From Myxococcales bacterium (GTDB taxonomy: Bacteria; Myxococcota_A; Polyangia; Polyangiales; Polyangiaceae), in contig JADJCA010000011.1 in NCBI GenBank assembly GCA_016703425.1, positions 378,050-442,049 on the forward strand: 64,000 nt of DNA, read 5' to 3'. Below the pieces are notes generated by a model. The model did no database searches and had not been told where the DNA came from. It saw nothing but the letters and a program-made list of their open reading frames with translations. The position numbers and the translations under genes are program-made. Positions within the stretch are counted from its first letter, which is position 1; each line of letters begins with the position of its first letter. This document shows positions 1,095-57,811 of the stretch, one piece after another.

Positions 1095-2081
1095 CTACGT
1101 GCCCGGTCTCAGCCGATAGACAATCGCCACGACGACCACGACCCACAGGACCAGGTTCAAGACGAAGGGCACGTCGCGGAGCATCTCTTGCGTGGGGCTC
1201 TCGCTCTTGAGGCCGCGACCGCCGCGACCCGACACGAGGTACAAGAAGCGCAAGATCCCGAAGACCGTGAACGGCGCCGTGATCCACAAGAGCTTCGAGT
1301 TGAAGAACAGCTGCGTCGCCGGATCGAGCGTGTAGGCCACGTAGGTGACGACGGTGGCGCCGCCGGCGAGACCCAGGGCGACGTTGAGCGCCCCCGGCGT
1401 GTAGGCCTCGAGGGCCGCGCGCTGCTTGCCGGCATTCTCATTGGCCAGCTCGTGGCGACGCTTGCCGAACCCCAAGAAGAGCGCCAACAGCGCGGTCGAC
1501 GCGAGCATGTAGAGGCTCGGCGTCACGTTCGTCGCGAGGCCGCCGGCGACGACGCGAAGGACGAAGCCGAAGGCAATCAGTCCCACGTCGAGGTAGGCGA
1601 CCTTCTTGAGCTTGAACGTGTAAGCCAGGTTCTCGACGAAATAGACGAGCGCCACGACGCCGAACATTGCGTTCAGCAAGAACGCCATCCCCAGCGAGAC
1701 CACCACGAGCAAGACGGCCATGGTGCGGGCGAGGCTCTCGGGCACTTCGCCGCTCGCGATGGGGCGCTCTCGCTTCACCGGGTGAACCCGATCGGCCTCG
1801 ACGTCCACGAGGTCGTTGATCGTGTAAACGGCGCCCGCCAAGAGGCAGAACACCGCTGTTGCCGCCAGCGCCTTGCCGGTGACGGCGAGGTTCAGAGCGG
1901 GCCCCACGGGCGTGCTCAAGAACACGCTCTTGTGGAAGAACATCGGAGCGAGAACGAAGAGGTTTTTCACCCACTGGTGAGGCCTCACCGTCCGGACGAG
2001 CCCGGCGATCACGGCGGCACCATAGCGCTTTCGACGAACCCCGTCTCGTTTCCTTCTGTCGGCAGCCGCGCCAGAGCCCAT
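1095..2081 (-). CDS. UbiA-family prenyltransferase (decaprenyl-phosphate phosphoribosyltransferase-like)
   Basis: 328 aa polytopic membrane protein with RPHQWVKNLFVLAP and NDLVDVEADR motifs typical of UbiA / 5-phosphoribosyl-1-pyrophosphate:polyprenyl-phosphate phosphoribosyltransferase enzymes. Confidence 0.7.
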   Translation of the reverse strand: MGSGAAADRRKRDGVRRKRYGAAVIAGLVRTVRPHQWVKNLFVLAPMFFHKSVFLSTPVGPALNLAVTGKALAATAVFCLLAGAVYTINDLVDVEADRVHPVKRERPIASGEVPESLARTMAVLLVVVSLGMAFLLNAMFGVVALVYFVENLAYTFKLKKVAYLDVGLIAFGFVLRVVAGGLATNVTPSLYMLASTALLALFLGFGKRRHELANENAGKQRAALEAYTPGALNVALGLAGGATVVTYVAYTLDPATQLFFNSKLLWITAPFTVFGILRFLYLVSGRGGRGLKSESPTQEMLRDVPFVLNLVLWVVVVVAIVYRLRPGT

Positions 2082-2211
2082 GCGGGGCGGTCCCCAACGG
2101 GCCCGCCGCGGCTGTGCGGCCTTCGTCGAACCTGCGCACCGAGGTCCCTCGCGCAGCGACGCGCTTGGTGCTTTGCCGAAGGCTCGTTACTGTCTGTGCG
2201 TGTTTTCCTCG

Positions 2212-5200
2212 ATGAAGCGGCCGAGCGCTCTCGCCGCGTGGACCCTCGCTCTCGGTTTCTCCGCGTTCCCTTGCGGGGCCGAGGCCAGCACGAAGCCGGC
2301 GCGCCTCGCACGAATCGCTGAGCTGCGCGACGCGGCCGGTCGCGGCGCGCCACGCGCCTACGTCGCGTTGCGTGAGCTTTGGCAGGAGTGGGATCAGGGT
2401 GATCCGCGCGAAGTGGAAGAGGCGCTCCGCGACGTCGCCGCCGACAAGTCCATCGCGCCGCCCGTTCGAAGCTACGGCGCGCTGCTCGCTGCCTACGCGC
2501 GCCGCCGCCGCGGCGACCTCGACGGCGCCGAGAGCCAGATCAGAAAGCTCGGGTTCGTCTCGGCCTGGCAGGTCGTGGGCCCCTTCGACAACGAAGGCAA
2601 GACGGGCCTCGCCCGCGCCTTCGAGCCAGAGGTCAGCGCCGAGTCTCCCTCGGCGGCAAAGAGCTACGACGGCAAGGAGCGTCCGGTGCGGTGGCGGCTC
2701 CTTCCGAGCGGCGCGCCGTTCGGTTGGATTGATCTCGGCAACGTGATTCGACCCGCGGAAAAGGGCTGCAGCTACGCGTCGACGTACGTCCGCGACAGAA
2801 CGCTGGCGGACGGGAAGAGTCGCGCCATTTCGCTGTGGGCGGGGAGCGCCGGAGCCTTCAAGCTCTTCTGGAACGGGCAAGAGGTCATGGTCGACCCCAA
2901 GTACCGCTCGCTCGACGCTGACCGGCAGGCCGCCGCGGTGGTCCTCGAAGGCGGCTGGAACCGGCTGCTCGTCAAGGTGTGCGGCGAAGAAGACGCGCCG
3001 CTCTTCTCGGTGCGACTCGCCGACGACAAGGGCGCGCCCGACGAGCGGCTCGAAAGCAGCGGAGACGCCGCCCACCACGCGGCCGCAGCGACGAAGAAGG
3101 GCAGGCGCGCGCCTTCGCTCCTCGCCGGCCCCATCGACGCCTTCGAGCGCGCGGCAAAGGGCGAGAGCGCCGAGGCCCTCGAGGCCTACGCGCGCTACCT
3201 GGTCTTGTCGTTGGCCGACGACCCGGCGGAGCGAAAGGCCCGCGAGCTGGCTCGAAAGGCCGCCGAGCGCGGGCCGTCGGTCTCACGCTTGCTCCTTGCC
3301 GGCGAGCTCGCCGAGAGCCGCAATCAGCGGGCCCAATGGATCGAGCGCGCCGAGGCGATGGTCGCCAAAGGCGGCGCCACGGGCGGCGTCTCGGAGCGCG
3401 ATCGCATCGCCGTCTTGCACGCGCGAGCCGCGCACGCGCGGAGCGGCGTGTATTTCCGCGACGCGATGCCCTTCTACGATCGCATCCTGGCGCAAGATCC
3501 CGACGACGTGACGGCGCTCTTGGCCCGCTTCGAGCTCTACCTCGAGGCCGACCTCGCGAGCACGGCGACGACGCTGCTGGAACGCGCCGTGACGAGAAGG
3601 CCGCGAAGCGTGGCGCTCCTGCGCGCGCTCGCGTCGTCGCTGCGGCAGCAAGGCCGCGTCGCCGAGGCCACAGAGATCGAAGAGCGCTACGCCCAGCTCC
3701 GCTTCGACGACCCCGGTTACCTGCGGGACCGCATCGAATTGGCCGTCGCACGCCGCGACAAGGCGTCCGCCGCGCGCCTCCGCGAACGACTCATGAGGGT
3801 CATGCCCGATCACTTGCCCACGCTCCTTTGGGTCGCGCGGAGCGCCCTCCAGCTCGGCGAGCCGGAGCGGGCGCTCCCCCTCCTCAGGCGATGCCTCGAG
3901 CTTGCCCCCGAAGACATCGACGCGCTCCGCGCCTTGGCCGACGCAAACTCGGTCCTCGGCAAGCGCGACGAGCAACTGGCGCTGCTCCGTAAGGTCTTGG
4001 TCCTCAAGCCTCAGGCGAAGGAGGTCCGCGAGTACCTCTCGCAGCTCGAGCCGGAGCGGCCCAGGCCCGATGAAGCCTACGCGCGCCCCTCCAGCGAGTT
4101 CCTCAAGCTGCGCGGAGCGCCGGCCGACGGCGCAAGTCAGCGGACGCTCTCCAGCCTGCGAGTCACCACGGTGTACCCGAACGGCCTCGCGAGTCGCTTC
4201 AACCAGCTCGTGTGGCAGCCGCTGACGGAGAGCGCCGCCCAGGAGGCGCGCCAATACGCGTTCACCTACGAAGCCGACAGCGAAACGGTGCAGCTGCGCG
4301 GCGCACGCGTCTTTCGCAAGAGCGGCGCCGTGGAGGAGGCCGTCGACGTCGGCGAGGGCCCGGCCAACAACCCCGCCATGGTGATGTACACCAGCGGCCG
4401 CACCGTTTACGTGCGCTTTGCACGCGTCGAGGTGGGCGATGTCGTAGAGCTTCGCTACCGACAGGAAGACGTCAGCGCCCGCAACGCCTTCGCCGACTAC
4501 TTCGGCGAGGTCACGACCTTCCCGTCGAACGAGCCCGTGGCGCGCGCCGAATACGTGCTCATCACGCCGAAGTCCCGCACGTTCCATTTCAACGAGCCTC
4601 GCGTCGCGGGCCTCAAGCGAACCTCCACAGAAGGCGGGAGCGAGCGCATCGACCGCTTCGTGGCCGAGAATCTGGCGCCGCTCCCTCCTGAGCCGCTGCA
4701 GCCGCCTTACAGCGAGCTCTTGGGGTACGTGCACGTCTCGACCTACAAGTCGTGGGAAGACGTGGGCCGCTGGTACTGGGGCCTCGTCAAAGATCAGTTC
4801 GTCGCCGACGACGAGGTTCGCCGCCGCACGCAGGAGATCACCAAGGGCCTCACGGATCCGCGCGCCAAAGTGAAGGCGGTCTACAACTGGGTCGTCCAGA
4901 AGACGCGCTACGTCGCCCTGGAGTTCGGCATCCACGGCTTCAAGCCCTACCGCTGCGCCCAAATTTTCGCGCGAGGCTTCGGCGACTGCAAAGACAAGGC
5001 GACGCTGATCGTGACCATGCTGAAAGAGCTTGGGATCCCGGCCACCATCGTCATCGTGAGGACCGGCATGCGCGGCGACTTCGACGAGAAGCCGGCGAGC
5101 CTCGCGCCGTTCGATCACGCCATCGCTTACGTGCCGAGCATGGACCTCTACCTCGACGGCACCGCCGAATGGACCGGCTCCTCGGAGCTTCCAGCCATGG

Positions 5201-5901
5201 ACCGGGGAGCGTTGGCGCTTCAGATCAACGAGGGAAACGCGAAGCTCGTCCGCTTGCCCGACGCGCCCGCCGCGGAGAGCGTCTCATCCAAGACCATCGA
5301 GGTGAACCTCGAAGCCGACGGCAAGGCAACCATCGACCTCCGCGCCGAGGTCACCGGCGTTTCTGCGCCAGGTTTTCGCGAGCGCTACCACGCGACCTCG
5401 ACGCGCAAGGCTCGCTTGCAGGAGGATCTGTCGCAGGAGGTCCCGGGCCTCGAGGTCGCCGCCGTCGAGGCCAACGACCTCTTGAACCTCGAGGAGAAGG
5501 TCTCGCTCCGGGTTCGCGGCAAGTCGTCGATCGTGGGAAAGCGAGAAGGCGACCGCTTGAGCCTCGCCGTGGGTCCGCGCGAGTCCATGGTCCGCGACTA
5601 CGCGGCCCTCTCGCGGCGCTCGACGGACCTCAGGTTGCGCGCCCGCTCGACCACCGAACAAGCTTGGAAGGTGAAGCTGCCGCCGGGCATGAAGGTGGCC
5701 GACCTGCCGGCGGCCCAAAGCGGGACGACCCCCTTCGGCAGCTACCGGCTACGCGTCGAACAGACCGGCAACGTCGTCTCCGTCAGCACGACGGTCACGC
5801 TCGACAAGAGCCGCATCAAGGCCTCGGAATACGGGGCGTTCCGCACGTTCTGCGAGAGCGCCGATCGCGCGCTCGGTCAACGGCTCGTGCTCGCCCGATG
5901 A
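2212..5901 (+). CDS. Secreted TPR / DUF3857 / transglutaminase-like protein with an intact catalytic triad
   Basis: ATG at 2212 gives signal peptide MKRPSALAAWTLALGFSAFPCGAEA. N-terminal TPR-like repeats, DUF3857-like segment (VVELRYRQEDVSARNAFADYFGEVTTF), and transglutaminase core GFGDCKDKA...FDHAIAYV...LDGT (Cys-His-Asp). Confidence 0.75.
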   Translation: MKRPSALAAWTLALGFSAFPCGAEASTKPARLARIAELRDAAGRGAPRAYVALRELWQEWDQGDPREVEEALRDVAADKSIAPPVRSYGALLAAYARRRRGDLDGAESQIRKLGFVSAWQVVGPFDNEGKTGLARAFEPEVSAESPSAAKSYDGKERPVRWRLLPSGAPFGWIDLGNVIRPAEKGCSYASTYVRDRTLADGKSRAISLWAGSAGAFKLFWNGQEVMVDPKYRSLDADRQAAAVVLEGGWNRLLVKVCGEEDAPLFSVRLADDKGAPDERLESSGDAAHHAAAATKKGRRAPSLLAGPIDAFERAAKGESAEALEAYARYLVLSLADDPAERKARELARKAAERGPSVSRLLLAGELAESRNQRAQWIERAEAMVAKGGATGGVSERDRIAVLHARAAHARSGVYFRDAMPFYDRILAQDPDDVTALLARFELYLEADLASTATTLLERAVTRRPRSVALLRALASSLRQQGRVAEATEIEERYAQLRFDDPGYLRDRIELAVARRDKASAARLRERLMRVMPDHLPTLLWVARSALQLGEPERALPLLRRCLELAPEDIDALRALADANSVLGKRDEQLALLRKVLVLKPQAKEVREYLSQLEPERPRPDEAYARPSSEFLKLRGAPADGASQRTLSSLRVTTVYPNGLASRFNQLVWQPLTESAAQEARQYAFTYEADSETVQLRGARVFRKSGAVEEAVDVGEGPANNPAMVMYTSGRTVYVRFARVEVGDVVELRYRQEDVSARNAFADYFGEVTTFPSNEPVARAEYVLITPKSRTFHFNEPRVAGLKRTSTEGGSERIDRFVAENLAPLPPEPLQPPYSELLGYVHVSTYKSWEDVGRWYWGLVKDQFVADDEVRRRTQEITKGLTDPRAKVKAVYNWVVQKTRYVALEFGIHGFKPYRCAQIFARGFGDCKDKATLIVTMLKELGIPATIVIVRTGMRGDFDEKPASLAPFDHAIAYVPSMDLYLDGTAEWTGSSELPAMDRGALALQINEGNAKLVRLPDAPAAESVSSKTIEVNLEADGKATIDLRAEVTGVSAPGFRERYHATSTRKARLQEDLSQEVPGLEVAAVEANDLLNLEEKVSLRVRGKSSIVGKREGDRLSLAVGPRESMVRDYAALSRRSTDLRLRARSTTEQAWKVKLPPGMKVADLPAAQSGTTPFGSYRLRVEQTGNVVSVSTTVTLDKSRIKASEYGAFRTFCESADRALGQRLVLAR

Positions 5902-10969: not shown

Positions 10970-11698
10970 TTGCAAGCCTTGGAAATCGCCCCGAAGATCT
11001 CCCGAATGCTGCCCCGTGTCCTCGAACCCGAGATCATGGACACGGCCCTCGACGCCGCCGACTACGACGCCATGGATCACGGCGCCGTGAACGAGGCCTT
11101 CTGCCGTGATTTTCTCGCGGCACGCCCTCAGTTGGCGTGCGTATTGGACGCGGGCACCGGCACCGGGCTCATCGCCGTGGAGCTTTGCCGCCGCGCGCCC
11201 GCGGCGAACATCGTGGCCATCGACCTTGCCAACGAGATGCTCGCGCTGGCGAAGAAGAACGTTCAGGCCGCGGGCTACGCCGACCGCATCGAAGTGGCGC
11301 GACGCGACGCGAAGCGAACAGGCTTCGACGACGGCGACTTCAGCGCCGTGATCTCCAACAGCCTCGTGCACCACCTGCCGGAGCCCGGAGCTTTTCTCAA
11401 GGAGGCCGCGCGGCTCCTCGCGCCGGGTGGGCTCCTCTTCGTGCGCGACCTCGCGCGCCCCGAAGACGAGACCGCCGTGTCGTCGCTCGTCGACCGATAC
11501 GCGCTTGTCACCGCCACGGACCCGACGCTCCGCTCACGGGAGTCGCGGCAACGAGCGCTCTTCGCGGCGTCGCTTCGAGCGGCGCTCACGTGCGACGAGG
11601 TGTCGGCCCTGCTGCCCGACGCGCTTCGGGTCGGGGCTCGCGTCGAGCTGACGAGCGATCGTCACTACACGCTCGTCGCGCGGAAGGCGCGTGCGTGA
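10970..11698 (+). CDS. Class I SAM-dependent methyltransferase
   Basis: VLDAGTGTGLIAVEL (motif I), DFSAVISNSLVHHL, LLAPGGLLFV. An alternative start at 11006 (MLPRVL) is possible. Confidence 0.75.
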   Translation: MQALEIAPKISRMLPRVLEPEIMDTALDAADYDAMDHGAVNEAFCRDFLAARPQLACVLDAGTGTGLIAVELCRRAPAANIVAIDLANEMLALAKKNVQAAGYADRIEVARRDAKRTGFDDGDFSAVISNSLVHHLPEPGAFLKEAARLLAPGGLLFVRDLARPEDETAVSSLVDRYALVTATDPTLRSRESRQRALFAASLRAALTCDEVSALLPDALRVGARVELTSDRHYTLVARKARA

Positions 11699-12828
11699 GC
11701 CGCGTCCGCGCGTTTCCGTGGGCCACGCTCGACGCTCTCACGAAAGCCGAGGTCGCGCGCGCGCGCCACTTCGGCGACTTCATCGCGCACCTGCTCGCGA
11801 CCAGCACGAGCGCTCGCGCCGCGACGCTCCGGGGCCTGTTGGGGGTTTCCCCCGAGGTTCGGCTGCGCGCCATCGACAGCGCGGCATCCGCGAGCGCGCC
11901 TGACGACGAGCGCCTCGCGGTGCACCTCCTCGTCGCAAAGACCGAAGTCATCGTCGAGACGGAGAGCGCGCTCGCGGCCGACGTGGTGGCGCGGGCTCTC
12001 GAACGAAAGGGACCGTCGCTCCCGCCGCGGGGCACGGCGGCGCTCGCCGGCGCCTTCGGTGCTGTCGCGGTGAGCGCGCTGAGGCGCCTCCGAGCGGACG
12101 CCGACGTTCGTCTCAAGTTCGCCGGACTGTCCAAGGACGTCCTGGCGAGGCAGTCTCTGGCGGACCCCGTCGCGGCCCACGTCACGGTGCTCCTCGACGC
12201 GGACGCTTACGACGCCCGTCTCGTCTTTTCGTCCCGAGCAGCAGGAAGCGTTGGCGCGCGACCCGTAGGACGGCGCGCCCTCGCGGCGCTCGACGTTCGA
12301 ATCGCCGTGCCCCTCACCTTGGCGCCCTCGTGGGCGCCGGCGCGCGAGCTTCGTGCGCTCGCGACGGGCGACGTCTGGCTGACGGGAGGCCGCTCGACGG
12401 CGCTGTCCTTCGTCCTGGCCGCGCCGGGCGCGCGCCGCGGCGTGCGCTGCACGGCCACGGCTGGGCTGGCTCTAGGCGTGCGCGACGTGGCTGCGGCATC
12501 GTTCCAAGTCGTGGTAGGGGACGTAGTCGAGGATTTGACGATGAGCGAAGCGACGGAAGACACCCTCCTCGAATCGGCCCTCGACGCACCGGTGATCGTT
12601 CGCGTCGAGCTCGGCGCCGTCGAGCTGTCGGCCCGCGAGTGGGCGAGCCTGCGCGCCGGCGATGTGGTGACCGTTGGCGCTCGCGTGGGCGCGCCCGTGC
12701 TCCTCCGCGCGGGCTCTCGCGAGCTAGGCACCGGCGAGCTCGTCGACATCGACGGCGAGGTCGGTGTCCGTGCCCTTTCGATGCGCACCTCGACGCCGCA
12801 ATCGGCTTCTTTGGAGGGCGGCGCTTGA
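11695..12828 (+). CDS. SpoA (FliN/SctQ-like) domain protein, orphan
   Basis: GTG at 11695 overlaps the upstream stop (GTGA). The C-terminus PVIVRVELGAVELSAREWASLRAGDVVTVGARVGAPVLLRAGSRELGTGELVDIDGEVGVRAL matches the surface-presentation-of-antigens fold of FliN/YscQ. Size (377 aa) fits SctQ. Confidence 0.55.
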   Translation: MSRVRAFPWATLDALTKAEVARARHFGDFIAHLLATSTSARAATLRGLLGVSPEVRLRAIDSAASASAPDDERLAVHLLVAKTEVIVETESALAADVVARALERKGPSLPPRGTAALAGAFGAVAVSALRRLRADADVRLKFAGLSKDVLARQSLADPVAAHVTVLLDADAYDARLVFSSRAAGSVGARPVGRRALAALDVRIAVPLTLAPSWAPARELRALATGDVWLTGGRSTALSFVLAAPGARRGVRCTATAGLALGVRDVAAASFQVVVGDVVEDLTMSEATEDTLLESALDAPVIVRVELGAVELSAREWASLRAGDVVTVGARVGAPVLLRAGSRELGTGELVDIDGEVGVRALSMRTSTPQSASLEGGA

Positions 12829-14424: not shown

Positions 14425-15507
14425 ATGCTGACGCGACCGGCGTATCTGGGGTGGGCGCTCGCGCACTACGGCAAGGTCCCCTTCGACCTCGCGTCGAGCG
14501 GCATGCCGACGCTGCGCCAGAGCGAGCTCGGCGCGGCGAGCCTTGACGATCCCAACGGCTGGGAGATCTTGCAGGGCGCCATCGCGAAGCACAACGCGGT
14601 CACCCGCTCGGAGGCCATCGGCGCGCTGGGCGCGTCGCACGGGCTTTGGCTCGCGTACACGTCGATGATCGACGCTGGCGACGACGTGCTCGTCGAAGAC
14701 CCGGCTTACGAGCCGTTGTGTCACGCGGCGCGCGCGGCCGGCGGCAACGTCGTTCGCTTCGATCGGGGCCCCGACGTCAACTACGCCCTGGACCCGGAGC
14801 GCGTCCGGGCCGCCATGACCCCGCGCACCAAGGTCGTGGCCATCTCGAACCTTCACAACCCGAGCGGTGCGCGCGCGAGCGACGACGCCATGCGCGAGGT
14901 CGCCAAGGTCGTCGCCGATCGCGGCGGCTACCTCTTCGTCGACGAGGTCTACGCTCCCTTCGACGACCTGGTCGACGAAGCGGGGATCTTCCACGGAAGC
15001 GCGAGACGCCTCGCGCCGAACGTGGTGGCCACGGCGAGCCTCACCAAGGCCTACGGCCTTGGCCCGCAGCGCATCGGGTGGGTCTTGGGCCCGCCCAAGG
15101 TCATCGACGCCGCCATGGACGCCATCGTGGCCTCCGTCGGCGTCTTGCCTATCGCGTGGATGCACCGCTCCGCGCTGGCCCTCTCTCACGTGGGCGCGCT
15201 CTCGGCGCGTTCACGCTCGCTGCTCGGCAAGAAGCGCGAGCGCGTGGCCCGCTGGATGCGCGAGCAAGAGAACCTCGCGTGGAGCGCCCCACCGGCTGGA
15301 CTCTTTGGCTTCGCGACACTTCGCCGCAGCGCCGCCGACCTTAGGCCGGTGATCGAGCGCGGCATCGAAGCGCACGGCGTGATCGTCGCGCCGGGATCTT
15401 TCTTCGGAGTTCCAAACGGCTTTCGCCTCGCCTGGTCGCTCCCGGAGGAGCAACTGGACGAGGCGCTTCTTCGCCTGAGCACCGTGCTCACCACCGCGAC
15501 GTCGTGA
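14425..15507 (+). CDS. PLP-dependent aminotransferase (class I/II fold)
   Basis: 360 aa. Fold-type I aminotransferase-like segments (SNLHNPSG..., LFVDEVYAPF, ASLTKAYGLGPQRIGW). Confidence 0.8.
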   Translation: MLTRPAYLGWALAHYGKVPFDLASSGMPTLRQSELGAASLDDPNGWEILQGAIAKHNAVTRSEAIGALGASHGLWLAYTSMIDAGDDVLVEDPAYEPLCHAARAAGGNVVRFDRGPDVNYALDPERVRAAMTPRTKVVAISNLHNPSGARASDDAMREVAKVVADRGGYLFVDEVYAPFDDLVDEAGIFHGSARRLAPNVVATASLTKAYGLGPQRIGWVLGPPKVIDAAMDAIVASVGVLPIAWMHRSALALSHVGALSARSRSLLGKKRERVARWMREQENLAWSAPPAGLFGFATLRRSAADLRPVIERGIEAHGVIVAPGSFFGVPNGFRLAWSLPEEQLDEALLRLSTVLTTATS

Positions 15508-15543: not shown

Positions 15544-16299
15544 TCAGAAGAGGCCGCCGAGCAAGCCGCCGAGGCCGCCACCGCCGCCGCCGCCGAGCAG
15601 ACCGCCAAGCGCGCCGAGGCCACCCGCGGGGTTCGCGCCGCCGCCACCGGTGAGGCCGCCGAGGCCCTTGATGAGACCGCCGACTTGCCCTGCGATCTGT
15701 CCGATCTGCGGGTTACCCGTCGCCTGACCGAGGAGGTTTCCGATGGGCCCGATGGCGGCGAGGGGGTTGCCTCCCTGAAGCGCGTTGAACACGCCGGGCA
15801 ACGCACCAAGCGCGCCAAGCGGGTTGGCTTGCGGCTGCTGCGCAACGGGCGCCTGTTGGAACACCGGCTGCGGCGCGAAGCCTTGGCCGCCTTGCGGGGC
15901 GAAGGGCATGAAGCCGCCGTTGGCGCCGTAGGCCGGTTGCCCGAAGCCTTGTTGGAAGCCGGGTTGAAACCCCTGTTGGAATCCGCCGGGAGCGGCGCCG
16001 TATTGCGGCGCTTGGATGCCGGGCGGGAGCGCAAAGCCTCCTTGCGGTGCCGCCACCATGTAAGGCTCCGGCGCGAAGCCGCCCTGCGCGCCGAACGCGG
16101 GCTGCGCACCGTACGCGGGCATCCCAAACTGACCGGCAGGCGCCGGCGCACCGTACATGCCCGCCTGGGGATCGAACTGGTTGGGGTCGAAGGCGCCCTG
16201 CTGCTGCGGGAGCCGCGCGCCCAGCGCACCGACCGCAATGCCGCCGCTCACCGCGTCGAGCGAATCAAGGTCGATGGAATCGAATTCGTTGTTGGGCAT
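15544..16299 (-). CDS. Gly/Gln/Pro-rich protein with N-terminal double-glycine leader-like peptide (MPNNEFDSIDLDSLDAVSGG)
   Basis: GGAG lies 9 nt upstream of the ATG at 16299. The leader matches the LSxxELxxIxGG bacteriocin/microcin leader pattern. The body is about 230 aa of low complexity (QQGF, GLGALG, LTGGGG repeats) ending GGGGGGLGGLLGGLF. Confidence 0.55.
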   Translation of the reverse strand: MPNNEFDSIDLDSLDAVSGGIAVGALGARLPQQQGAFDPNQFDPQAGMYGAPAPAGQFGMPAYGAQPAFGAQGGFAPEPYMVAAPQGGFALPPGIQAPQYGAAPGGFQQGFQPGFQQGFGQPAYGANGGFMPFAPQGGQGFAPQPVFQQAPVAQQPQANPLGALGALPGVFNALQGGNPLAAIGPIGNLLGQATGNPQIGQIAGQVGGLIKGLGGLTGGGGANPAGGLGALGGLLGGGGGGGLGGLLGGLF

Positions 16300-16821
16300 G
16301 ATCGACATCTCCGAGGACGAGAACTGCAAAGGCTCGGCCACTCGGAAGGAGCCTTTTCGCCCTCGTATTTCGCGGAAATTTTGGGCGCACACATCGCCGC
16401 CGGATCCGGTCCTCTCCGCACTGTCGCCTCAGGGAAACTCAGGGACGCTGTAGGTCTTCGAGGAGAGCGGAACGCTTCGCAAGTCCGCGCCCTGCACAGA
16501 GAATCAGCGGTCGACGCGGCGACGCGAGCGGGCGTCGCGCCGGGCTTCGGTCGCGCGGGGCCGGGGCGGGGCCCGCGGCGTCGATGGTGTGCATGCTAAC
16601 GATCGACCTGCGCGGCCATGCCCCCGCCCCCCGCCGAATCGCGCTGCCGCGCGCCCAACGCGCGAAACCAATGAACAACGGCGGGCGACCGTGAGGTCGT
16701 CCGCCGCGTGGCCAGGCCAACGAGCTGGCCGGCTGGCGTTCGTCAGAACGTACCGAGCGGTCCCACGCCACCGACGCCCGCGCCCGGGCAAGGTTCGCGC
16801 TCAACGCTCCCGCCGAGCGGG

Positions 16822-17382
16822 CTACCCAACGGACTGCGGAGGGGTTGGCGAAGCGACGTTGCCGCCGAGGTTGAGACTGCCGAGTTGGCTGCCGAGTTGG
16901 CCGCCGAGTTGGTTGATGAGCGGCCCGAACTGCGCGCCGAATTGCCCGACGAGGCCGTTGATCACGGGGCCGAGCGCCCCGAGTCCTTGACCGCCGGTGA
17001 GTCCACCAAGCAAGGGCGCGAGGGCGCCGAGGCCCTGCCCTTGCGTCAAGCCGTTCACGATGGCGCCGATGTTCAAGGCCCCGCCATTGGGAAGGAAGCC
17101 GAGCGGATTCGCCCCGCCGAGGAAAGCGTTGGGATCGGCCGACGGCGCCGCACCGGCCTGGACGAAGCCACCGGCAGTCCCGCCGAGGGGATTTCCGAAC
17201 GACGGCGTGAAGACGTGCGACGCGTCGAGCTGCGGCTGGCCGTATTGGCCGTAGGGATCGAAGCCGCCGTAAGGCGCGCCGAGCGGACCTGGCGCTCCGG
17301 GACTCGACGCAACCGGCGTCGCGAGGCCACCGAGCTTCACGCCACCAATCACGGCGTCCAGGTCTTCAAGTGCGAGCTTCAT
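16822..17382 (-). CDS. Paralogous Gly-rich protein with double-glycine leader-like peptide (MKLALEDLDAVIGG)
   Basis: GGAGG lies 7 nt upstream of the ATG at 17382. The leader is colicin V-like (compare MRTLTLNELDSVSGG). The body shares GLGALG, NPLG and LTGGQG motifs with 15544..16299. Confidence 0.55.
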   Translation of the reverse strand: MKLALEDLDAVIGGVKLGGLATPVASSPGAPGPLGAPYGGFDPYGQYGQPQLDASHVFTPSFGNPLGGTAGGFVQAGAAPSADPNAFLGGANPLGFLPNGGALNIGAIVNGLTQGQGLGALAPLLGGLTGGQGLGALGPVINGLVGQFGAQFGPLINQLGGQLGSQLGSLNLGGNVASPTPPQSVG

Positions 17383-17557
17383 GATCCGAGCCTCCGCTGA
17401 TGCAAACTGCAAGGGGTTTGCCAACGCCCCTCACGCCGGCATTTCCACGGATGGCAGACGATTCCGCGGGCCGCATGGACACGGCTCGGCTCACTTTGCC
17501 TCCGAAGGGCGACGAGAGAGCGCAACTAGACCTCGCGCGGCGCGGCCCGGACGACGC

Positions 17558-18493
17558 TCAACGCGCCACCGCCGAGCGCGTGGCGACGACGGTCACGCCG
17601 GCGAGGATGAGCGTCCCCGCGAGCAGCACGTGCCCTTGCGGGCGCTGCCCCAACTGAACAAACGCGAGCGCCCCTGCGACCAGCGGCTGCAAGTAGATGT
17701 AGATGGTCACGAGCGTCGCGCTCGACCGCCCGAGAGCCCAGGCGTTCGCGGCATACGCGACGATGGTAGGGACGACGACGATGTAGACCAGCAAGGTGAC
17801 GCCCAAGGCGTCGATGACCCCGAGGGTGCGGACGAGGGGCCCCACACCGAGCGGAGCAAACGTGAGCGCGCCCCAAGTGAAGATCCATCGAATGACCTCG
17901 ATGGCACCGAGGCGGCGAATGGTCGAGCGACCGAGGACGATGTAGCCCGCGTAAGCGAGAGAGTTGGCGACGACGAGGACCGCGCCGCGATCCACGCTGG
18001 AGAGCCCGGTCAGCTCGACGACGCCCAGGAGCGCGAGGCCAATGCCGGCAGCGACGCGCCAGGTGGGCTTCTCGTGTCGGAGGACGACGGCCAGCGCCGC
18101 CGCAAAGACAGGGATGGCCACGCACAGAAGCGCGGCAGAGAGCGGCGTCGTCGCTCGGAGGCCGAAGAGAAAGAGCGTCTGGTTCAGCGAGATGCCGAGC
18201 ACCGACAGGCCCGCCAGCGCGAGGTGATCGCGCCCCGAGAGCGGTGGTGCTGGTGGTGCTGATGCCCCACGGCGGCGACGAAGCAAGAGCGCCAGCCCTT
18301 GAAAGAAGAGCGCCGCGAAGCCCATGCGAGCCATGGCGATGGCCTCCGGCGAAAGGCCCGCACCGCCGCTGTGGCGCGGCATCATCGCGAGCTTTCCTTC
18401 GACCGCGTTGGACGCGAACGCTAGCTGAACCACAAGGAGCGCGGCGTGCGTGGCCCACGGACCGGGCCCTGTGGTGGCGATCTTGTCAGTCAT
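17558..18493 (-). CDS. DMT-superfamily (EamA-like) transporter
   Basis: 311 aa with 10 predicted TM helices and two EamA-like halves. Confidence 0.8.
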   Translation of the reverse strand: MTDKIATTGPGPWATHAALLVVQLAFASNAVEGKLAMMPRHSGGAGLSPEAIAMARMGFAALFFQGLALLLRRRRGASAPPAPPLSGRDHLALAGLSVLGISLNQTLFLFGLRATTPLSAALLCVAIPVFAAALAVVLRHEKPTWRVAAGIGLALLGVVELTGLSSVDRGAVLVVANSLAYAGYIVLGRSTIRRLGAIEVIRWIFTWGALTFAPLGVGPLVRTLGVIDALGVTLLVYIVVVPTIVAYAANAWALGRSSATLVTIYIYLQPLVAGALAFVQLGQRPQGHVLLAGTLILAGVTVVATRSAVAR

Positions 18494-18617: not shown

Positions 18618-21473
18618 ATGTGGACAACCCTTCCTCTCTTTGGGACCGGCCTGCTCCTCACGGTCATGTTGGTGGCCAGCTACACGTTCGCCGTGTCGCT
18701 CGCCGCGCACGCCGACGGCAAGCCTCGGACGCTTCAGGCGGCTCGTTTCGGCGCCTACGGAGTCGTGATCCTCATCCTGACGACGGTGCTGGTCTTGGCC
18801 TACGCCTTCGTGAGCCACGACTTCCGACTGCGCTACGTCGCGCACTACTCGGACCGGTCGATGTCCACGCCGTACCTCTTCACGGCGCTCTGGGGCGGCC
18901 AAGACGGCTCGCTCTTGTGGTGGCTCTTCCTCTTGTCGCTCTACATCGGAGCGTGCGTGAAGTGGCTCGGCCGCCGCTTCCTTGAATTGCAGCCCGCGAT
19001 CTTGGCGACGTGCATGGCCGTCGTCCTGTTCTTCGCGGTGTTGATGACCTTCAGCGCGAATCCCTTCAGCACGAGCATCGCCGGCGCGAGGCCCGACGGC
19101 GAAGGCCTGAACCCGCTGCTCCAGAATTTCTACATGATCATCCACCCGCCGAGCCTCTACGTGGGCTTCGTCGGGTGCACGATCCCCTTCGCGTTCGCCG
19201 TCGCCGCGCTCGTCACCGGCCGCCTCGACACCGAGTGGATCGTCGCCAGCCGCAAGTTCACGCTCTTCTCGTGGCTCTTTCTCGCCATCGGCAACACGCT
19301 CGGCATGCTCTGGGCCTACGAGGAGCTCGGCTGGGGCGGCTATTGGGGCTGGGACCCGGTCGAGAACGCGGCCTTCATGCCGCTCTTGTCGGCGAGCGCG
19401 TTCGTGCACTCGGTCATGATCCAAGAGCGCCGGGGTCTCTTCAAACTCTGGAACGTGTTCCTCGTGTCGCTCACGTTCCTGATGACCATCTTCGGAACGT
19501 TCCTCACGCGCTCCGGCGTCATCGCCAGCGTGCACTCGTTCGCGCAATCGTCCATCGGCAACTACTTCGTCGGCTTCATGGTCGTCCTCGTGGCGTTCCT
19601 CATGACGCTCGTGCTCTACCGGTGGCCCGAGCTCCGCGACTACCCCAAGGAGGCGCGCCTTCGCAAAGCCGCCATGGCCACCGGCTGGACGGTTGTCGGC
19701 GTGGGCATCGCGGCTGGCTTGGTCCTCACCAACGTTCCCATGAGCGGCGCGGTGCGCGCCGCCATCGTGTCGGCCGTCGCCGCGGGGACCGTCTTTGCCT
19801 CCGTCGAGCTGGTGTTCCGCAAGATGACGGCGGGCCTCGACCTCTCGCATCGCCGCCCCGCCATCGAGTCGCTCTGGTCGCGCGAGTTCACCTTCGTCCT
19901 CAACAACTGGGGCCTGCTCGGCTTCATGTTGTTCGTGCTCGTGGCCACGACCTTCCCGATGATCTCGGAGGCCTTCTGGAACGAGAAGGTCACCGTCGGG
20001 CCGCCCTACTACAACGCGTGGGTTCAGCCCATCGGGCTCACGATCTTCTCGCTCATGGGCATCGGCTCACTCTTCGGATGGAAGAAGACGAGCGACGCGG
20101 CCCTCCGCAAGGCGTTCTTCTTCCCGAGCCTGACCTTCGTCGTCGTCCTCGTCCTCCACTTCGCCCTTGGCAGCCGCTTCGGTTACCCGGCCACGGTCTT
20201 CACGGACCCCATCTATCCCGGGCCCCTCGGGCAGGTGCTCCGCGCGTTCAACGGCATCACGCCGGTGCTCGGCATCTCGCTGTGCGCCTTCAACGCTGCC
20301 GTCATCGTGCAAGAGTTCGCGCTCCTCTTCGGCGCGCGCCGAAAGACCGGCGCCAACAAGGACGTGCCGAAGGCCCTCTTCTACGCCGGCTTCCTCCCGG
20401 GCTTCTTGATGACGCTCGTCACGTTGCCGCCTCCCTCGCGCCGTCGCTACGGCGGCTACGTGGTCCACTTCGGAATCACGATGATGTTCCTTGGCTTCAC
20501 GGGAGCGTCTTGGAACATCAACAAGGAGACGACGATGTCGCCGGGCCAGACCTACAAGGTCGACGCCTACGACCTTCAGTACGTCGGTCCGCGCATGGAG
20601 GTCGACACCTCGAAGCGCATGATCTTCGCCGACCTCCGCGTCCAGAAGAGCGGCAAGGACATGGGCCTCGTGACGCCGGCGAAGTTCATCTACAAGCGCC
20701 GCCCCGAGTCGCCGACCACGGAGGTCGCGATGCTCCACACCATCGCCGACGACCTCTACGTCGTGGTGGGCGCGATCAATCCGCAGACGAAGGTCGCGAG
20801 CCTGCAGATCCACGTCAACCCGCTCGTCGGGTGGATCTGGTTCGGCGCCATCATCCTCATCTTCGGCAGCGTCGTCTGCATGTGGCCCGAGCTCCGACCC
20901 AACGAGTCGCGGGCCTGGGCCGCGGCGCGCGGCGTGGCGGGCGCGGCAGCGAGCATCACGCTCGGGGTCGTCTTGGCCTCGATGCCCGCCCCAGCCTTCG
21001 CGCAGAGCGCTGGCAACGGCACCGCCGGCGCCTCGAGCCTCCACTCGGGCACCGTGAAGATCGAGAACGCCGAGGAGCGCGACCTCTTCGGAAAGCTGCG
21101 CTGCATGTGCGGCACTTGCCCGCGCGACCTCTTGTCGACCTGCGCGTGCGACACCGCCGAGGAGACCCGCGAGCGGCTGCGCGCGAGGCTCAAGGCCGGC
21201 GAGGCCAAAGACGCCATCATCTTGGCCTACGCGAAGGAGTACGGCTCCGCCGCGCTCTCCATTCCGCCGAACACGGGCGCCATGCGTGCCATCTACATGG
21301 TGCCCGTCGCCGCGATCGTGGCTGGCGCCGCCGGCGTCGTGGTGCTCATGCGTCGCTGGCGCAAAGGCGAGGGCGCCGCCGCCGCTCCGAAGGACAGCGC
21401 GGGCGCGACAAAGGACGCCAAAGACGAGTACGATCGCCGCCTCGACGACGAGCTGAGGGAGCTCGATGACTGA
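18618..21473 (+). CDS. ccmF: Cytochrome c maturation protein CcmF fused to a CcmH-like C-terminal domain
   Basis: CcmF hallmarks (WGGYWGWDPVEN, heme-handling His residues, about 15 TM helices), followed by LRCMCGTCPRDLLSTCACD (CcmH LRCxxC thiol motif) and a final TM helix. Confidence 0.85.
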   Translation: MWTTLPLFGTGLLLTVMLVASYTFAVSLAAHADGKPRTLQAARFGAYGVVILILTTVLVLAYAFVSHDFRLRYVAHYSDRSMSTPYLFTALWGGQDGSLLWWLFLLSLYIGACVKWLGRRFLELQPAILATCMAVVLFFAVLMTFSANPFSTSIAGARPDGEGLNPLLQNFYMIIHPPSLYVGFVGCTIPFAFAVAALVTGRLDTEWIVASRKFTLFSWLFLAIGNTLGMLWAYEELGWGGYWGWDPVENAAFMPLLSASAFVHSVMIQERRGLFKLWNVFLVSLTFLMTIFGTFLTRSGVIASVHSFAQSSIGNYFVGFMVVLVAFLMTLVLYRWPELRDYPKEARLRKAAMATGWTVVGVGIAAGLVLTNVPMSGAVRAAIVSAVAAGTVFASVELVFRKMTAGLDLSHRRPAIESLWSREFTFVLNNWGLLGFMLFVLVATTFPMISEAFWNEKVTVGPPYYNAWVQPIGLTIFSLMGIGSLFGWKKTSDAALRKAFFFPSLTFVVVLVLHFALGSRFGYPATVFTDPIYPGPLGQVLRAFNGITPVLGISLCAFNAAVIVQEFALLFGARRKTGANKDVPKALFYAGFLPGFLMTLVTLPPPSRRRYGGYVVHFGITMMFLGFTGASWNINKETTMSPGQTYKVDAYDLQYVGPRMEVDTSKRMIFADLRVQKSGKDMGLVTPAKFIYKRRPESPTTEVAMLHTIADDLYVVVGAINPQTKVASLQIHVNPLVGWIWFGAIILIFGSVVCMWPELRPNESRAWAAARGVAGAAASITLGVVLASMPAPAFAQSAGNGTAGASSLHSGTVKIENAEERDLFGKLRCMCGTCPRDLLSTCACDTAEETRERLRARLKAGEAKDAIILAYAKEYGSAALSIPPNTGAMRAIYMVPVAAIVAGAAGVVVLMRRWRKGEGAAAAPKDSAGATKDAKDEYDRRLDDELRELDD

Positions 21474-23699: not shown

Positions 23700-24095
23700 C
23701 CTTTCTTCGCACAAACGGCCTGTGGGTAAGCCTTGGAGTTGAGGGGGGAGCATCCCGTGGATTCCGGTGGGGGAAAGTCTCTTGACTACATCTGCCCCCA
23801 TCCGCCCCCAGTCATCCCACCTTCGACTCCACATGACATACACGGTCGATGTTTCTGATGTTCAATGGGATTTCGTGGCTGTCCACATTTCCACAGGCTC
23901 TATCAACACTTCTAGGATTTAAATCTCTAAGAAGATCTGGAGAGAAGAGCACCGCGCCCTCTCGCCCGTGAGGCAGCTCCAGTGGAGCCAAAACATGGGG
24001 TGCCGAGGCTTGCGTCCCGCCCAAATCGCGACGATGTAGGTGAGCCCGTCGCGAGCTTCCAAGAGCCGCCGTCCTGTCTCCGTCTTGCCTGAGGG
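23700..24095. other. Putative chromosomal replication origin (oriC)-like region upstream of dnaN
   Basis: Local GC drops markedly (ttctaggatttaaatctctaagaagatctgg). It contains DnaA-box-like 9-mers TGTCCACAT, TTTCCACAG, CATCCCACC and GGAATCCAC (rc), and sits immediately 5' of dnaN-recF-gyrB. Confidence 0.45.
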
Positions 24096-24099
24096 TCCC

Positions 24100-25239
24100 A
24101 TGCTGGAATTGTCGGTTGCGAAGAAAGATCTGCTGAAGCTCGTGAGCCGCGTGCAAGGCGTTGCCGAGCGCAAAAGCACGATGCCGGTTCTTTCCAACGT
24201 GCTCCTCACGGCCGACAGCTCGGGCACACTTCGCCTCTCCGCCACGGATCTCTACCTGGCGATCTCCGGCAAAATCGCGGCCGAAGTTCAGAAAGCCGGC
24301 AGCGTCGCCGTCCCCGCGAAAGATCTCTTCGAGCGCGTGAAGATGATGCCCGACGGTCCCGTGACCATCGCGTCGGGCGACAACGCTGCGACGACGCTCA
24401 AGGCCTCCGGCAGCGCGCGCCGGTACACGTTGCGCGGCATGCCGGGCGATGACTTTCCGCCGTTGCCGGCCGCCGCCGAGGGCGCGCCGTCGCTCGCGCT
24501 CGACGTGGCCGTGCTCCAAGAGCTGATCTCGAAGACGCACTTCTCAATCTCCACCGACGAAACGCGCGCGCACCTCAACTCGGCGCTCTTCGAGTGGGAC
24601 GGTGATGTCGTTCGCATGGTCACGACCGACGGACACCGCCTCTCGAAGATGGAGGTGAAGGTTCCCGGTCGACAGGCTTCGGCAACGATGCTCATCCCGC
24701 TCAAGGCCATCCACGAGCTGCGTCGCCTCGCCGACGACATGATGGGCGAGGCCGGCAAGGATCAAGACAAGCCGCAGATGCAGATCACGCAGAGCGGCTC
24801 GAGCGCGTTTTTCCAAGCGGGCACCACGAGCTTCAGCGTGAAGCTCGTCGACGCGCAGTTTCCGCCTTACGCCCAAGTCATTCCGCAAAACTCGGAGAAG
24901 CAGATCCGCGTGCCTCGCTCGGCCTTCGCCGACGCGCTCAAGGCCGTTGCCGTCGCCGCCAGCGAGCGCACGGGCGGCGTGAAGCTCTCGCTCGCGAAAC
25001 ACGCGATGCGAATCACCAGCGAGTCGCCCGAGACGGGCGATGGCTTCGATGAGATCGCGGTCGAATACGGCGCCGCGCCCATGACCGTTGGCTTCAACGC
25101 CAAGTACTTCCTCGACGTGCTCGCCGCGCTCGATGAGGACGAGGTCGTCTTGTGCCTCTCCGGCGAGCTTGACCCCGCCGTGGTGAAGCCCAACAGCGCG
25201 CGCGAGTTTCTGGCCGTCGTGATGCCGATGCGCATCTGA
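24100..25239 (+). CDS. dnaN: DNA polymerase III beta sliding clamp
   Basis: MLELSVAKKDLLKLVSRVQGVAERKSTMPVLSNVLL... has three-domain clamp architecture. GAGGG lies 5 nt upstream of the ATG at 24100. Confidence 0.9.
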   Translation: MLELSVAKKDLLKLVSRVQGVAERKSTMPVLSNVLLTADSSGTLRLSATDLYLAISGKIAAEVQKAGSVAVPAKDLFERVKMMPDGPVTIASGDNAATTLKASGSARRYTLRGMPGDDFPPLPAAAEGAPSLALDVAVLQELISKTHFSISTDETRAHLNSALFEWDGDVVRMVTTDGHRLSKMEVKVPGRQASATMLIPLKAIHELRRLADDMMGEAGKDQDKPQMQITQSGSSAFFQAGTTSFSVKLVDAQFPPYAQVIPQNSEKQIRVPRSAFADALKAVAVAASERTGGVKLSLAKHAMRITSESPETGDGFDEIAVEYGAAPMTVGFNAKYFLDVLAALDEDEVVLCLSGELDPAVVKPNSAREFLAVVMPMRI

Positions 25240-25241
25240 CG

Positions 25242-26438
25242 ATGGAGGCGGCTATCGAGATCGGTGACCGGCCGCTCGAGACGCGCGCCAACGATGGCGA
25301 GCAAAAGAGCCCGCTGATCATCGAGACGATTTCGCTGCGCGGCTTCCGAAACCTGAGCGACGTCGATCTCGCGCCGTCGCCGCGCTTCAACGTCATCGCC
25401 GGCGATAACGGTCAAGGCAAGACGAACATCCTCGAGGCCATCTACCTCGGCGGCACGACGCGGAGCTTTCGCACGACGAAGCTGGCGGAGGTCGTCGGGC
25501 ACCACAAGACGCTCGCGACGTCGAAGCTCGTCGTTCGTGAAGGGCCTTCCGAGCACGACATCGCCCGAGAGCAGGTGGTCGGCCTCCAAGGTGGCGCCCG
25601 CTCGGTCAAAGTGGATGGCAAGAGACCCGCGTCGCTGGCGGCTTATGCCATCAAGACGCCGGTCGTCGTGTTTCACCCCGGCGAGGTGGCGCTCTCGCAG
25701 GGGCCCAGCGGAGAGCGACGTCGCCTCCTCGATAGAGCCGGACTCTACGCGGCGCCGGGCTCGTTGGCCGATGCCGATGCCTACGCTCGCGCGATCCGTG
25801 AGCGTCAACGCGCGCTCGAGACGCGCGGCGCCATGGCTCGCGATTTGGACCAGTGGGAGGCGCTCGCGGTGCGTCACGGCATGAGCATCATGGGCGTTCG
25901 TCGTCGCGCCAGCGAGGCGCTGCTCACCGCGGCGGAGCGCGCCTTCCGACGCATCGCCGCGCCCGACCTCACGCTCACGGGAGCCTTCGCGCCGAGCGCA
26001 CCGGAAGACGAGACCGCGTACCTGAAGGCGCTCTGGGAGAGCCGCGCCGTCGACATGCGGAGAAAGAGCGCGAGCATCGGACCGCATCGCGACGAGCTCG
26101 CGCTCTTCATCAACGGGCACGCCGTTCGTGGGACCGCATCGCAAGGGCAGCACCGCGCGCTCGTGCTCGCGCTGAAGGCCGCCGAGATCGAGGTCATCGG
26201 GGATGCGCGTGGCGCGAGACCGATTCTCCTGCTCGACGACGTCTCGAGTGAGCTCGACCGGGAGCGGACGCGCGCGCTCATGGCGTTCTTGCGCGACCTC
26301 GAGGGGCAGGTCTTTTTGACGACGACGCGGCCGGAGCTCATCGTCCTCGGAGACGCCGAAGGTCTCTCCTTTGGCGACGAAACGCGGCGCGATTGGACCG
26401 TCCGCGAGGGCGCCATCGCGACGGCAGTAAATACCTGA
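25242..26438 (+). CDS. recF: DNA replication and repair protein RecF
   Basis: Walker A GDNGQGKTNILEAI and the signature/Walker B region LLLDDVSSELD. It immediately follows dnaN. Confidence 0.85.
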   Translation: MEAAIEIGDRPLETRANDGEQKSPLIIETISLRGFRNLSDVDLAPSPRFNVIAGDNGQGKTNILEAIYLGGTTRSFRTTKLAEVVGHHKTLATSKLVVREGPSEHDIAREQVVGLQGGARSVKVDGKRPASLAAYAIKTPVVVFHPGEVALSQGPSGERRRLLDRAGLYAAPGSLADADAYARAIRERQRALETRGAMARDLDQWEALAVRHGMSIMGVRRRASEALLTAAERAFRRIAAPDLTLTGAFAPSAPEDETAYLKALWESRAVDMRRKSASIGPHRDELALFINGHAVRGTASQGQHRALVLALKAAEIEVIGDARGARPILLLDDVSSELDRERTRALMAFLRDLEGQVFLTTTRPELIVLGDAEGLSFGDETRRDWTVREGAIATAVNT

Positions 26439-26451
26439 AATCAAAGCCTAA

Positions 26452-29088
<2,637 letters not shown>

Positions 29089-35196: not shown

Positions 35197-35202
35197 GGGT
35201 GT

Positions 35203-36245: not shown

Positions 36246-36254
36246 CTCTGTTGC

Positions 36255-37220
<966 letters not shown>

Positions 37221-37304
37221 GGACGCGAGCGTAGCACGATCGAGTGCCGTTCCTCGCCGCGCAACTTGCGCTGGTTTGGTGTCTCGAGGCACTGTCGCCC
37301 CCGC

Positions 37305-50702: not shown

Positions 50703-50842
50703 AGCCTCGCTCTCCCCGTAAACGTGAACGTGCCCGTGCCCGTGGACGCTCTCCTCTGCTCTCCTCTCCTCTTCCTCCGCCGCACCGCCGCACTCGGTCT
50801 CATTTCTGGGCGAGACTCGCCGTAGGCAGCGAGCCGGGCATC

Positions 50843-52644: not shown

Positions 52645-52730
52645 GTCGGCGGCCGCTGATTGAAGCCCAAACGAAACGAGGGCGGCCTCCACTGGAGGGC
52701 CGCCCTCGATCGCTTATGCCTCGGCGCGCG

Positions 52731-54797: not shown

Positions 54798-54847
54798 GAG
54801 CAACCTTCCTGACGAACCTGACGAATCTGGCGAAGACGGTGCGCCGT

Positions 54848-56066: not shown

Positions 56067-56111
56067 GGTACCGAAGGAACGCGCCCCCGCCCCGAGATTT
56101 CTCCGCGGCAC

Positions 56112-57680: not shown

Positions 57681-57811
57681 GAGTCCGACTAGTCTACCGC
57701 GGCCGCGGCGAGAACGGGAGAAGGTGGCGGCCGGCGCGAAAACGCATTCATTTCCAGCAAGGGCGCGCGGATGGCGAGCCGTCGCGTGACCTTCTTGCTA
57801 TGGTCGGGCCC

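Follow-up and report, generated by a model that had tools for sequence, protein, structure and literature searches.

Tandem glycine-rich proteins with double-glycine leader-like N-termini and putative sigma-54-type promoters in an uncultured myxobacterium: candidates for exported, self-associating material

Two neighbouring minus-strand genes, A (IPG50_22515) and B (IPG50_22520), lie in a 64,000-nucleotide stretch of the metagenome-assembled genome 'Myxococcales bacterium' (GenBank assembly GCA_016703425.1, contig JADJCA010000011.1, positions 378,050 to 442,049; hereafter the window, with its first letter as position 1) and encode glycine-rich proteins whose N-termini, as comparison with their relatives supports, behave like a functional double-glycine (GG) leader. 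The account that we favour, if only tentatively, is that both proteins would be exported by means of this leader through a system of the PCAT type (C39-peptidase ATP-binding cassette (ABC) transporter) encoded elsewhere in the genome, would be cleaved after the GG and would self-associate outside the cell, matrix or surface material being more likely than a classical bacteriocin. Export, cleavage, the identity of the exporter, self-assembly and the biological role are what we infer from sequence, and the original prediction, in which A and B were read as tandem paralogues with GG leaders next to a DMT transporter gene, is partly supported overall.

The double-glycine leader

The leader is the best-conserved part of the family. 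In the family alignment the body falls to about 40% identity and is broken up by many indels, whereas the pattern L..LDAV.GG is invariant in all members found, namely the A-type and B-type proteins and the products of single genes at two related loci, L083 and L086, which start MKKDLDLD[AT]LDAVNGG. Position -12 is always Ile or Leu, position -7 invariably Leu, position -4 invariably Val, and the two glycines occupy positions -2 and -1 in every one of these sequences. In the consensus of leaders recognised by PCATs, L(-12)xxxE(-8)L(-7)xxxxGG, positions -12 and -7 form a 'hydrophobic knot', position -4 is the specificity position and the GG lies in the active site (PMC6959990). It is mainly because the motif is what is conserved best in a protein that evolves fast, and because it matches the positions which a PCAT reads, that we argue for a working export leader. 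Homologues which keep the Gly-rich body and lack the GG had been named in the original prediction as evidence against a leader; among the family members found there are none, so this objection falls away. Acidic residues are enriched in the leaders, and the cargo is near-neutral.

When all six frames of the window were translated, a loose regular expression for the leader pattern matched 12 times; four of the matches have a Met at most 12 residues upstream, and only the leaders of A and B stand at the N-terminus of a protein under study.

Two short metagenome contigs without an exporter, L126 (243-587, minus strand) and L169, encode small Cys-rich GG peptides whose leaders show this motif (LDLDDLDAVAGG; LDSLDAVSGG), so that conventional small GG peptides of other bacteria, too, use exactly this leader flavour.

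Composition and predicted structure of the cargo

After the GG, the mature parts comprise 231 (A) and 172 (B) amino acids (aa), of which 24-26% are Gly, with Ala, Pro, Gln, Leu and Phe also plentiful; neither contains Cys or Trp, and each has only 4-5 charged residues. GxxxG motifs are frequent (24 in A, 12-19 in B) and the C-terminal 95 residues consist to 57-76% of G/A/V/I/L. Neither a Sec-type hydrophobic segment nor a transmembrane segment was found, the maximum 19-residue Kyte-Doolittle hydropathy being 1.15 or less. An AlphaFold model built from a shallow alignment and of low confidence (mean predicted local distance difference test, pLDDT, 45.8) places a short helix over leader positions -7 to -4, followed by about 140 disordered residues (pLDDT <50 for residues 9-161); residues 160-217 are modelled as three helices (pLDDT 56-67), and the Gly tail behind them is disordered. 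The middle region varies in length, is low in complexity and carries repeats that differ between lineages (GFQQ-type in the window, YG[SN]P[ST]-type, as in YGSPSYGSPSY, in L083), and every full-length family member ends in Phe.

Pairwise BLASTP between A and B is weak (E 0.04). Despite this we regard them as paralogues, as had been proposed, because an hhalign comparison of the A-type and B-type profiles gives a probability of 87.7% (E 3.4e-6) across the conserved C-terminal block. Of the motifs which the two proteins were said to have in common, LTGGQG occurs in B only, A having LTGGGG.

Promoters and transcription units

Each of the two genes appears to have a sigma-54-type promoter of its own. 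Upstream of A and B a common sequence can be read, TGGC-N7-TTGCAGTT...CGGAG...GATCATG, and its TGGC-N7-TTGCA part has exactly two matches in the 64 kb (0.29 expected by chance), each 25 nt upstream of the ATG of A or B, with the GG(-24)/GC(-12) spacing known from sigma-54 promoters (TGGCAC-N5-TTGCW). The relaxed pattern TGG-N8-TTGCA likewise has two matches in the window (A and B) and a single one each in L083 and L086, both upstream of the orthologous gene; the promoter pattern is invariant in the upstream alignment and lies at the same position in these two loci. No sigma-70 promoter was found in the locus.

Own sigma-54 promoters would make expression of A and B conditional on an activator. 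A candidate binding site is the ATCCGGCGGCG[AG]TGT box, which is conserved upstream of A and of the L083 and L086 genes and is not found upstream of B. The 64-kb window contains no activator gene, and a repeat search for activator sites was unconvincing. A terminator-like hairpin behind the authentic stop of B suggests that A and B are separate transcription units (coordinates of all features in Table 1).

The B-A spacer (16300-16745) hardly differs between the window and a strain of 95% overall identity, and it is more conserved than gene B. No credible small open reading frame (ORF) was found in these 445 bp, and Rfam gave no match on the locus; the spacer may hold regulatory sites for the sigma-54-type promoter of A, such as the box at 16391-16405.

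Family and synteny

Searches with full-length A and B against Pfam, NCBIfam, PADLOC, PHROGs and PDB profiles gave no match, an exhaustive phmmer search of full-length B against 1.84 billion representatives returned only itself, and a word-based homologue search returned the same species only. The loci of relatives were located with the neighbouring aminotransferase as an anchor (Table 2). This enzyme, encoded at 14425-15507 convergently with A, is dependent on pyridoxal phosphate (PLP); its best models are GntC (guanitoxin cyclodehydratase) and VioD (capreomycidine synthase), both far below the cut-offs, and relatives keep the enzyme whether or not they have the cassette. The conserved site lies between the aminotransferase (+) and EamA (-)/CcmF (+), and the cassette found there varies from none to one or two copies. 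To judge from these searches, A and B form a small family that is probably limited to a single lineage of uncultured, Polyangia-like myxobacteria and matches no known family.

Table 2. The conserved site in the window and in related loci (identity refers to the aminotransferase of the window).
Locus	Aminotransferase identity	Content of the site
Window, L001, L214, L215, L216	100% in window; L001 DNA 95%	two GG genes (A + B)
JGI 3300045391	65%	two genes (249 aa and 187 aa) without Pfam match (leader unread)
JGI 3300048101	67%	one Pfam-less gene, 244 aa (leader unread)
L083	68%	one GG gene, 249 aa, with Extensin-like_C and DUF2288 genes
L086	67%	one GG gene, 242 aa, with Extensin-like_C and DUF2288 genes
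L211	69%	no cassette; aminotransferase abuts EamA
L085	59%	no cassette; aminotransferase abuts EamA

Three broader scans added little. A metagenome scan with the family alignment produced 545 leader-pattern matches, none of which passed tblastn, probably owing to the low complexity of the query; L[DE]xLDAVxGG, written as a degenerate pattern of DNA, had at least 120 matches in metagenomes, nearly all of those listed being off-frame noise in GC-rich DNA; and a contig scan with CcmF led mostly to distant phyla, its one Polyangiaceae match ending at the gene and giving no synteny.

In L083 (9143-10461) and L086 (1813-3077) a DUF2288 gene and a gene for a lipoprotein-like Extensin-like_C (PF06904) protein accompany the one GG-leader gene at this site; the window has neither of the two.

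The EamA/DMT permease gene adjoining B was confirmed at 17558-18493. A part as transport partner is not supported for this gene, which the original prediction had pointed out as the only adjacent transport gene: L211 and L085 keep EamA without any GG gene, the aminotransferase directly abutting it, so that we reject EamA as a dedicated exporter and regard it as ancestral neighbourhood instead. A second candidate, the Walker A motif at 37425, was rejected as a PCAT too, since it belongs to a soluble ATPase (37299-37994), which lies 20 kb away and is the sole ABC element in the window.

Proposed export and self-association

In the mechanism that we propose, A and B would each be transcribed from their own sigma-54 promoter and the acidic N-terminal 14-20 residues would serve as the export leader. 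Its recognition would fall to a PCAT-type type I secretion system with genes elsewhere in the genome, which would bind the leader at L/I(-12), L(-7) and V(-4), cleave it behind the GG and export the cargo by threading it in unfolded form, a mode of transport which the predicted disorder of the cargo would suit. The released protein would have about 19-22 kDa, be almost uncharged and intrinsically disordered, carry short aromatic/Gly/Pro/Gln repeats, C-terminal Gly-rich amphipathic helices and a terminal Phe, and might self-associate, on the surface of the cell or beyond it, as matrix, adhesive or surface material. The single-gene minimal cassette, together with the lack of a local immunity or exporter gene, leans away from a classical bacteriocin.

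Several observations weigh against export by such a system. The E(-8) of the consensus is missing, position -8 being S, D, A or T, with acidic residues at -6, -9 and -11 instead. Support from curated leader profiles is below threshold or nil: the profile search suggested in the original prediction gave for the isolated leader of A a sub-threshold match to Pfam Bacteriocin_IIc (PF10439), the only family matching it (E 0.03, 14.7 bits vs a cut-off of 27.1), and nothing for the leaders of B, L083 and L086; NCBIfam, which should include TIGR01847, returned no match. Conservation runs on past the GG (h-x-h-x-x-L), so the motif could belong to a larger N-terminal module. Linkage of cargo gene and exporter is the usual arrangement in known GG systems; the 64-kb window contains no PCAT, no membrane-fusion protein (HlyD-type) and no C39 domain, as had already been remarked for the peptidase-ABC exporter in the original prediction, and neither a PCAT nor a C39 domain nor a membrane-fusion protein was found in the flanks, read over up to 10 kb, of L083, L086 and L214 (about 17-20 kb for L083 and L214).

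The last objection concerns size. The cargo of A and B is three to four times the 66-residue cargo of PCAT1, whose transmembrane cavity is estimated at 15,000 cubic angstroms, compared with about 9,000 for that cargo (PMC6959990); screens for microcins go no further than 150 aa, and PCAT function is not reported for anything larger than small proteins (PMC12219008). A cargo of 209-233 residues cannot use the cavity mechanism of PCAT1 and would have to be threaded unfolded, as the predicted disorder would allow.

The more specific proposal, in which a C39-peptidase type I system exports uncharged, disordered, elastomer- or prion-like proteins of more than 200 residues and thereby builds a sigma-54-controlled extracellular or surface material, we consider possible though doubtful. 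If true, it would establish a new class of cargo and a new role for double-glycine leaders, which are treated as tags of small peptides (bacteriocins, microcins, pheromones), so much so that genome screens drop anything above about 150 residues. A GG leader on a disordered, charge-free protein of 20 kDa would widen the range of cargo and challenge the cavity model of PCATs. It would also suggest that predatory or social bacteria of soil and sludge have a class of secreted low-complexity proteins, be they matrix, adhesive or surface-bound toxin, which homology searches do not see. The paired sigma-54-type promoters would offer a direct experimental handle on the timing of production.

Alternative explanations

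The main rival is a surface-bound toxin. A and B could be bacteriocin-like toxins (a two-protein, Cdz-like or microcin-like system) which a distant PCAT exports, which are then held at the surface or released, and whose Gly-zipper helices insert into target membranes. A GG leader, tandem paralogues, a Gly-rich near-neutral cargo, the many GxxxG motifs and the small-hydrophobic C-terminal 95 residues are all to be expected of such proteins, as are the patchy distribution and the fast divergence, and in CdzC/CdzD a tandem GG-type glycine-zipper pair is known which aggregates on the cell surface (PMC5380434). We nevertheless hold a toxin to be rather unlikely, since none of the six syntenic cassette-carrying loci contains an immunity gene or an exporter, a single gene makes up the minimal cassette (JGI 3300048101, L083, L086) and the A-B spacer offers no credible small ORF. 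The proteins themselves fit poorly as well: they are two to four times the size of the Cdz proteins (5-10 kDa) and of microcins, their helices are too weakly hydrophobic for a transmembrane segment, and a disordered P/Q/aromatic-rich spacer, unlike any bacteriocin, takes up over half of each protein.

Weaker, and in our view distinctly unlikely, is a cytoplasmic low-complexity scaffold that forms condensates or gels, with the acidic N-terminal motif as a docking site for a partner instead of an export tag. A composition rich in Q/G/P/F/Y and free of charge resembles that of phase-separating prion-like domains, no exporter is nearby, the conservation extends slightly beyond the GG and the leader-profile matches are sub-threshold, all of which would suit such a scaffold. 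Against it stands the exact fit of the motif to the PCAT recognition positions (-12, -7, -4, -2, -1). An almost charge-free aromatic/Gly protein of 20 kDa would moreover be prone to aggregate in the cytoplasm, an acidic leader on a neutral cargo is the pattern of bacteriocins and microcins, and the cassette is dispensable and patchy.

That A and B are precursors of peptides made on the ribosome and modified after translation (RiPPs), the GG leader guiding tailoring enzymes before its cleavage, is highly improbable. Several RiPP classes use GG-type leaders (PMC10885120), and a PLP-dependent enzyme resembling GntC or VioD adjoins A; this enzyme, however, is convergent, far below the family cut-offs and kept in relatives without the cassette, the locus encodes no modifying enzymes, Cys is lacking, Ser is scarce in A and the core would exceed 200 residues.

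That they are no genes at all, being chance ORFs of the kind which 70% G+C DNA yields in long form and great number, would agree with the lack of database families and distant homologues, and has next to no probability given the codon-position bias and protein conservation between orthologues, which refute it, the conserved Shine-Dalgarno (SD) sequence and promoter, and the agreement of gene callers at four sources on the starts.

Coding status, gene starts and the frameshift in B

Judged by composition and substitution pattern, A and B are real coding genes. The window has about 69% G+C, and the composition at the three codon positions is typical of coding sequence (GC1/GC2/GC3 about 0.74/0.55/0.79). 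Between the two diverged orthologues in L083 and L086, differences number 34, 22 and 90 at the first, second and third codon position, the codons of 186 identical residues showing 66 synonymous changes, and it is this preference for the third position that rules out chance ORFs.

Both minus-strand ORFs with GG-leader N-termini are present where the original prediction had placed them, and its choice of the short-leader ATG, preceded by a strong SD sequence, stands up. The longest ORFs span 15544-16392 (A) and 16822-17424 (B); translation starts at 16299 and 17382, with GGAG or GGAGG 8-9 nt upstream, and the N-terminal extensions of the longest ORFs are taken to be non-coding because the putative promoters lie inside them. 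The NCBI annotation of the source genome has identical starts and calls both products 'hypothetical protein', and gene callers at four sources (NCBI, ENA and Logan calls among them) chose the same starts.

Gene B as assembled in the window is shortened. Its counterparts in L001 (the strain 95% identical to the window), L214, L215 and L216 encode 219-223 aa and end ...GVGPLGTF; compared with these four assemblies, the window carries several small indels (16743-16860) and an early stop at 16822. Either an error of the assembly or a lesion peculiar to this strain may lie behind the frameshift.

Table 1. Features of the A/B locus (positions in the window).
Feature	Positions	Strand	Description
Gene A (IPG50_22515)	15544..16299	-	251 aa: 20-aa GG leader, ~140-aa predicted disordered G/P/Q/A/F/Y-rich middle, conserved predicted helical block, Gly tail with terminal Phe
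Conserved C-terminal block of A, residues 160-217	15649..15822	-	LGALPG..N.L..GNP....I.N..GQ.ATG.P..GQ..G; three predicted helices starting at Asn-Pro
Leader of A, MPNNEFDSIDLDSLDAVSGG	16240..16299	-	I-12, L-7, V-4, G-2, G-1; 5 of the 8 acidic residues of the protein
Shine-Dalgarno GGAG of A	16309..16312	-	9 nt before ATG
Putative sigma-54-type promoter of A, TGGCCGAGCCTTTGCA	16325..16340	-	GG at -24, GC at -12; 25 nt upstream of ATG
Upstream box ATCCGGCGGCGATGT	16391..16405	-	conserved as ATCCGGCGGCG[AG]TGT upstream of A, L083, L086; candidate activator-binding site
Terminator-like hairpin	16678..16692	-	~50 nt past the authentic stop of B
Displaced remnant of the authentic C-terminus of B (...GSPLGGSV...GVGGVGPLGTF*)	16743..16829	-	other frame; intact and in frame in L001, L214, L215, L216
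Gene B (IPG50_22520) as assembled	16822..17382	-	186 aa: 14-aa GG leader and Gly/Leu/Pro/Gln-rich body; 3' end frameshifted
Leader of B, MKLALEDLDAVIGG	17341..17382	-	L-12, L-7, V-4, G-2, G-1
Shine-Dalgarno GGAGG of B	17391..17395	-	8 nt before ATG
Putative sigma-54-type promoter of B, TGGCAAACCCCTTGCA	17408..17423	-	25 nt upstream of ATG

Other genes in the window

Beyond EamA lies a gene for CcmF fused to a C-terminal CcmH domain (18618-21473, 951 aa); the fusion is kept in relatives and has many matches in Acidobacteriota and Chloroflexota. The genes dnaN, recF and gyrB are found at 24040-29088, 7-12 kb from the locus, and the window is therefore probably close to the chromosomal replication origin. 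On the other side, a protein with a C-terminal FliN/SpoA (FliMN_C) domain (11137-12825), conserved in relatives, adjoins a methyltransferase; no other flagellar or injectisome genes were found in the window. Further observations are a 1292-aa DUF3857/transglutaminase/DUF3858 protein with TPR repeats (2026-5901), a MoxR-type AAA ATPase together with a TgpA-like transglutaminase membrane protein (33010-37568), and three PEGA-domain proteins clustered beside a Ser/Thr protein kinase (50621-57797).

Comparison with known systems

With class II bacteriocins and microcins, such as colicin V, the A/B family has in common an N-terminal leader of 14-20 aa with hydrophobic residues at -12/-7/-4 and GG at -2/-1, the combination of an acidic leader with a Gly-rich near-neutral cargo, and the lack of a Sec signal. 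It differs from them in the length of the cargo, 172-233 aa as against usually fewer than 100 (screens stop at 150 aa; PMC12219008), in the missing E(-8), in the absence of a linked PCAT, membrane-fusion protein or immunity gene and of sequence homology, in the sigma-54 type of its putative promoters and in the sub-threshold leader-profile matches. Class II microcins as sought in current screens (PMC12219008) have precursors of 150 aa or less, and their mature products are under about 10-15 kDa, whereas A has 251 aa and B 186 aa (219-223 aa at full length); an immunity gene adjoins them, whereas neither the spacer nor the flanks of A and B hold a credible small ORF.

CdzC/CdzD of Caulobacter (PMC5380434) come closer in arrangement, being likewise a tandem paralogous pair with GG-type leaders, rich in Gly and small hydrophobic residues and in GxxxG, and likely to be aggregation-prone. 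The Cdz proteins are small (5-10 kDa), consist to about 75% of G/A/V/I and are encoded with cdzAB (the type I secretion system) and cdzI (immunity), whereas A and B have about 20 kDa, a long disordered P/Q/aromatic spacer and less hydrophobic helices. Neither the Cdz size nor a zipper-dominated composition is seen in A and B, and linked genes of the cdzAB or cdzI type are absent in all loci examined.

The third system, EbfG1-4 of Synechococcus elongatus (PMC4997328, PMC9981879), differs from A and B in the size of its precursors (9-10 kDa, A and B being more than twice as large), in adjoining the exporter gene pteB, where A and B stand apart from any exporter, and in sequence, there being no similarity. 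For a biofilm to form, EbfG1-4 require their GG motifs as well as the PCAT PteB, and the secreted peptides are P/S/Y-rich (PMC4997328), a composition which may be compared with the YGSPSYGSPSY repeats of the L083 protein. Like the A/B family, EbfG1-4 are several tandem paralogues with a GG motif and without homologues outside their lineage, and the role described for them is a structural or biofilm-related one, not an antibiotic one.

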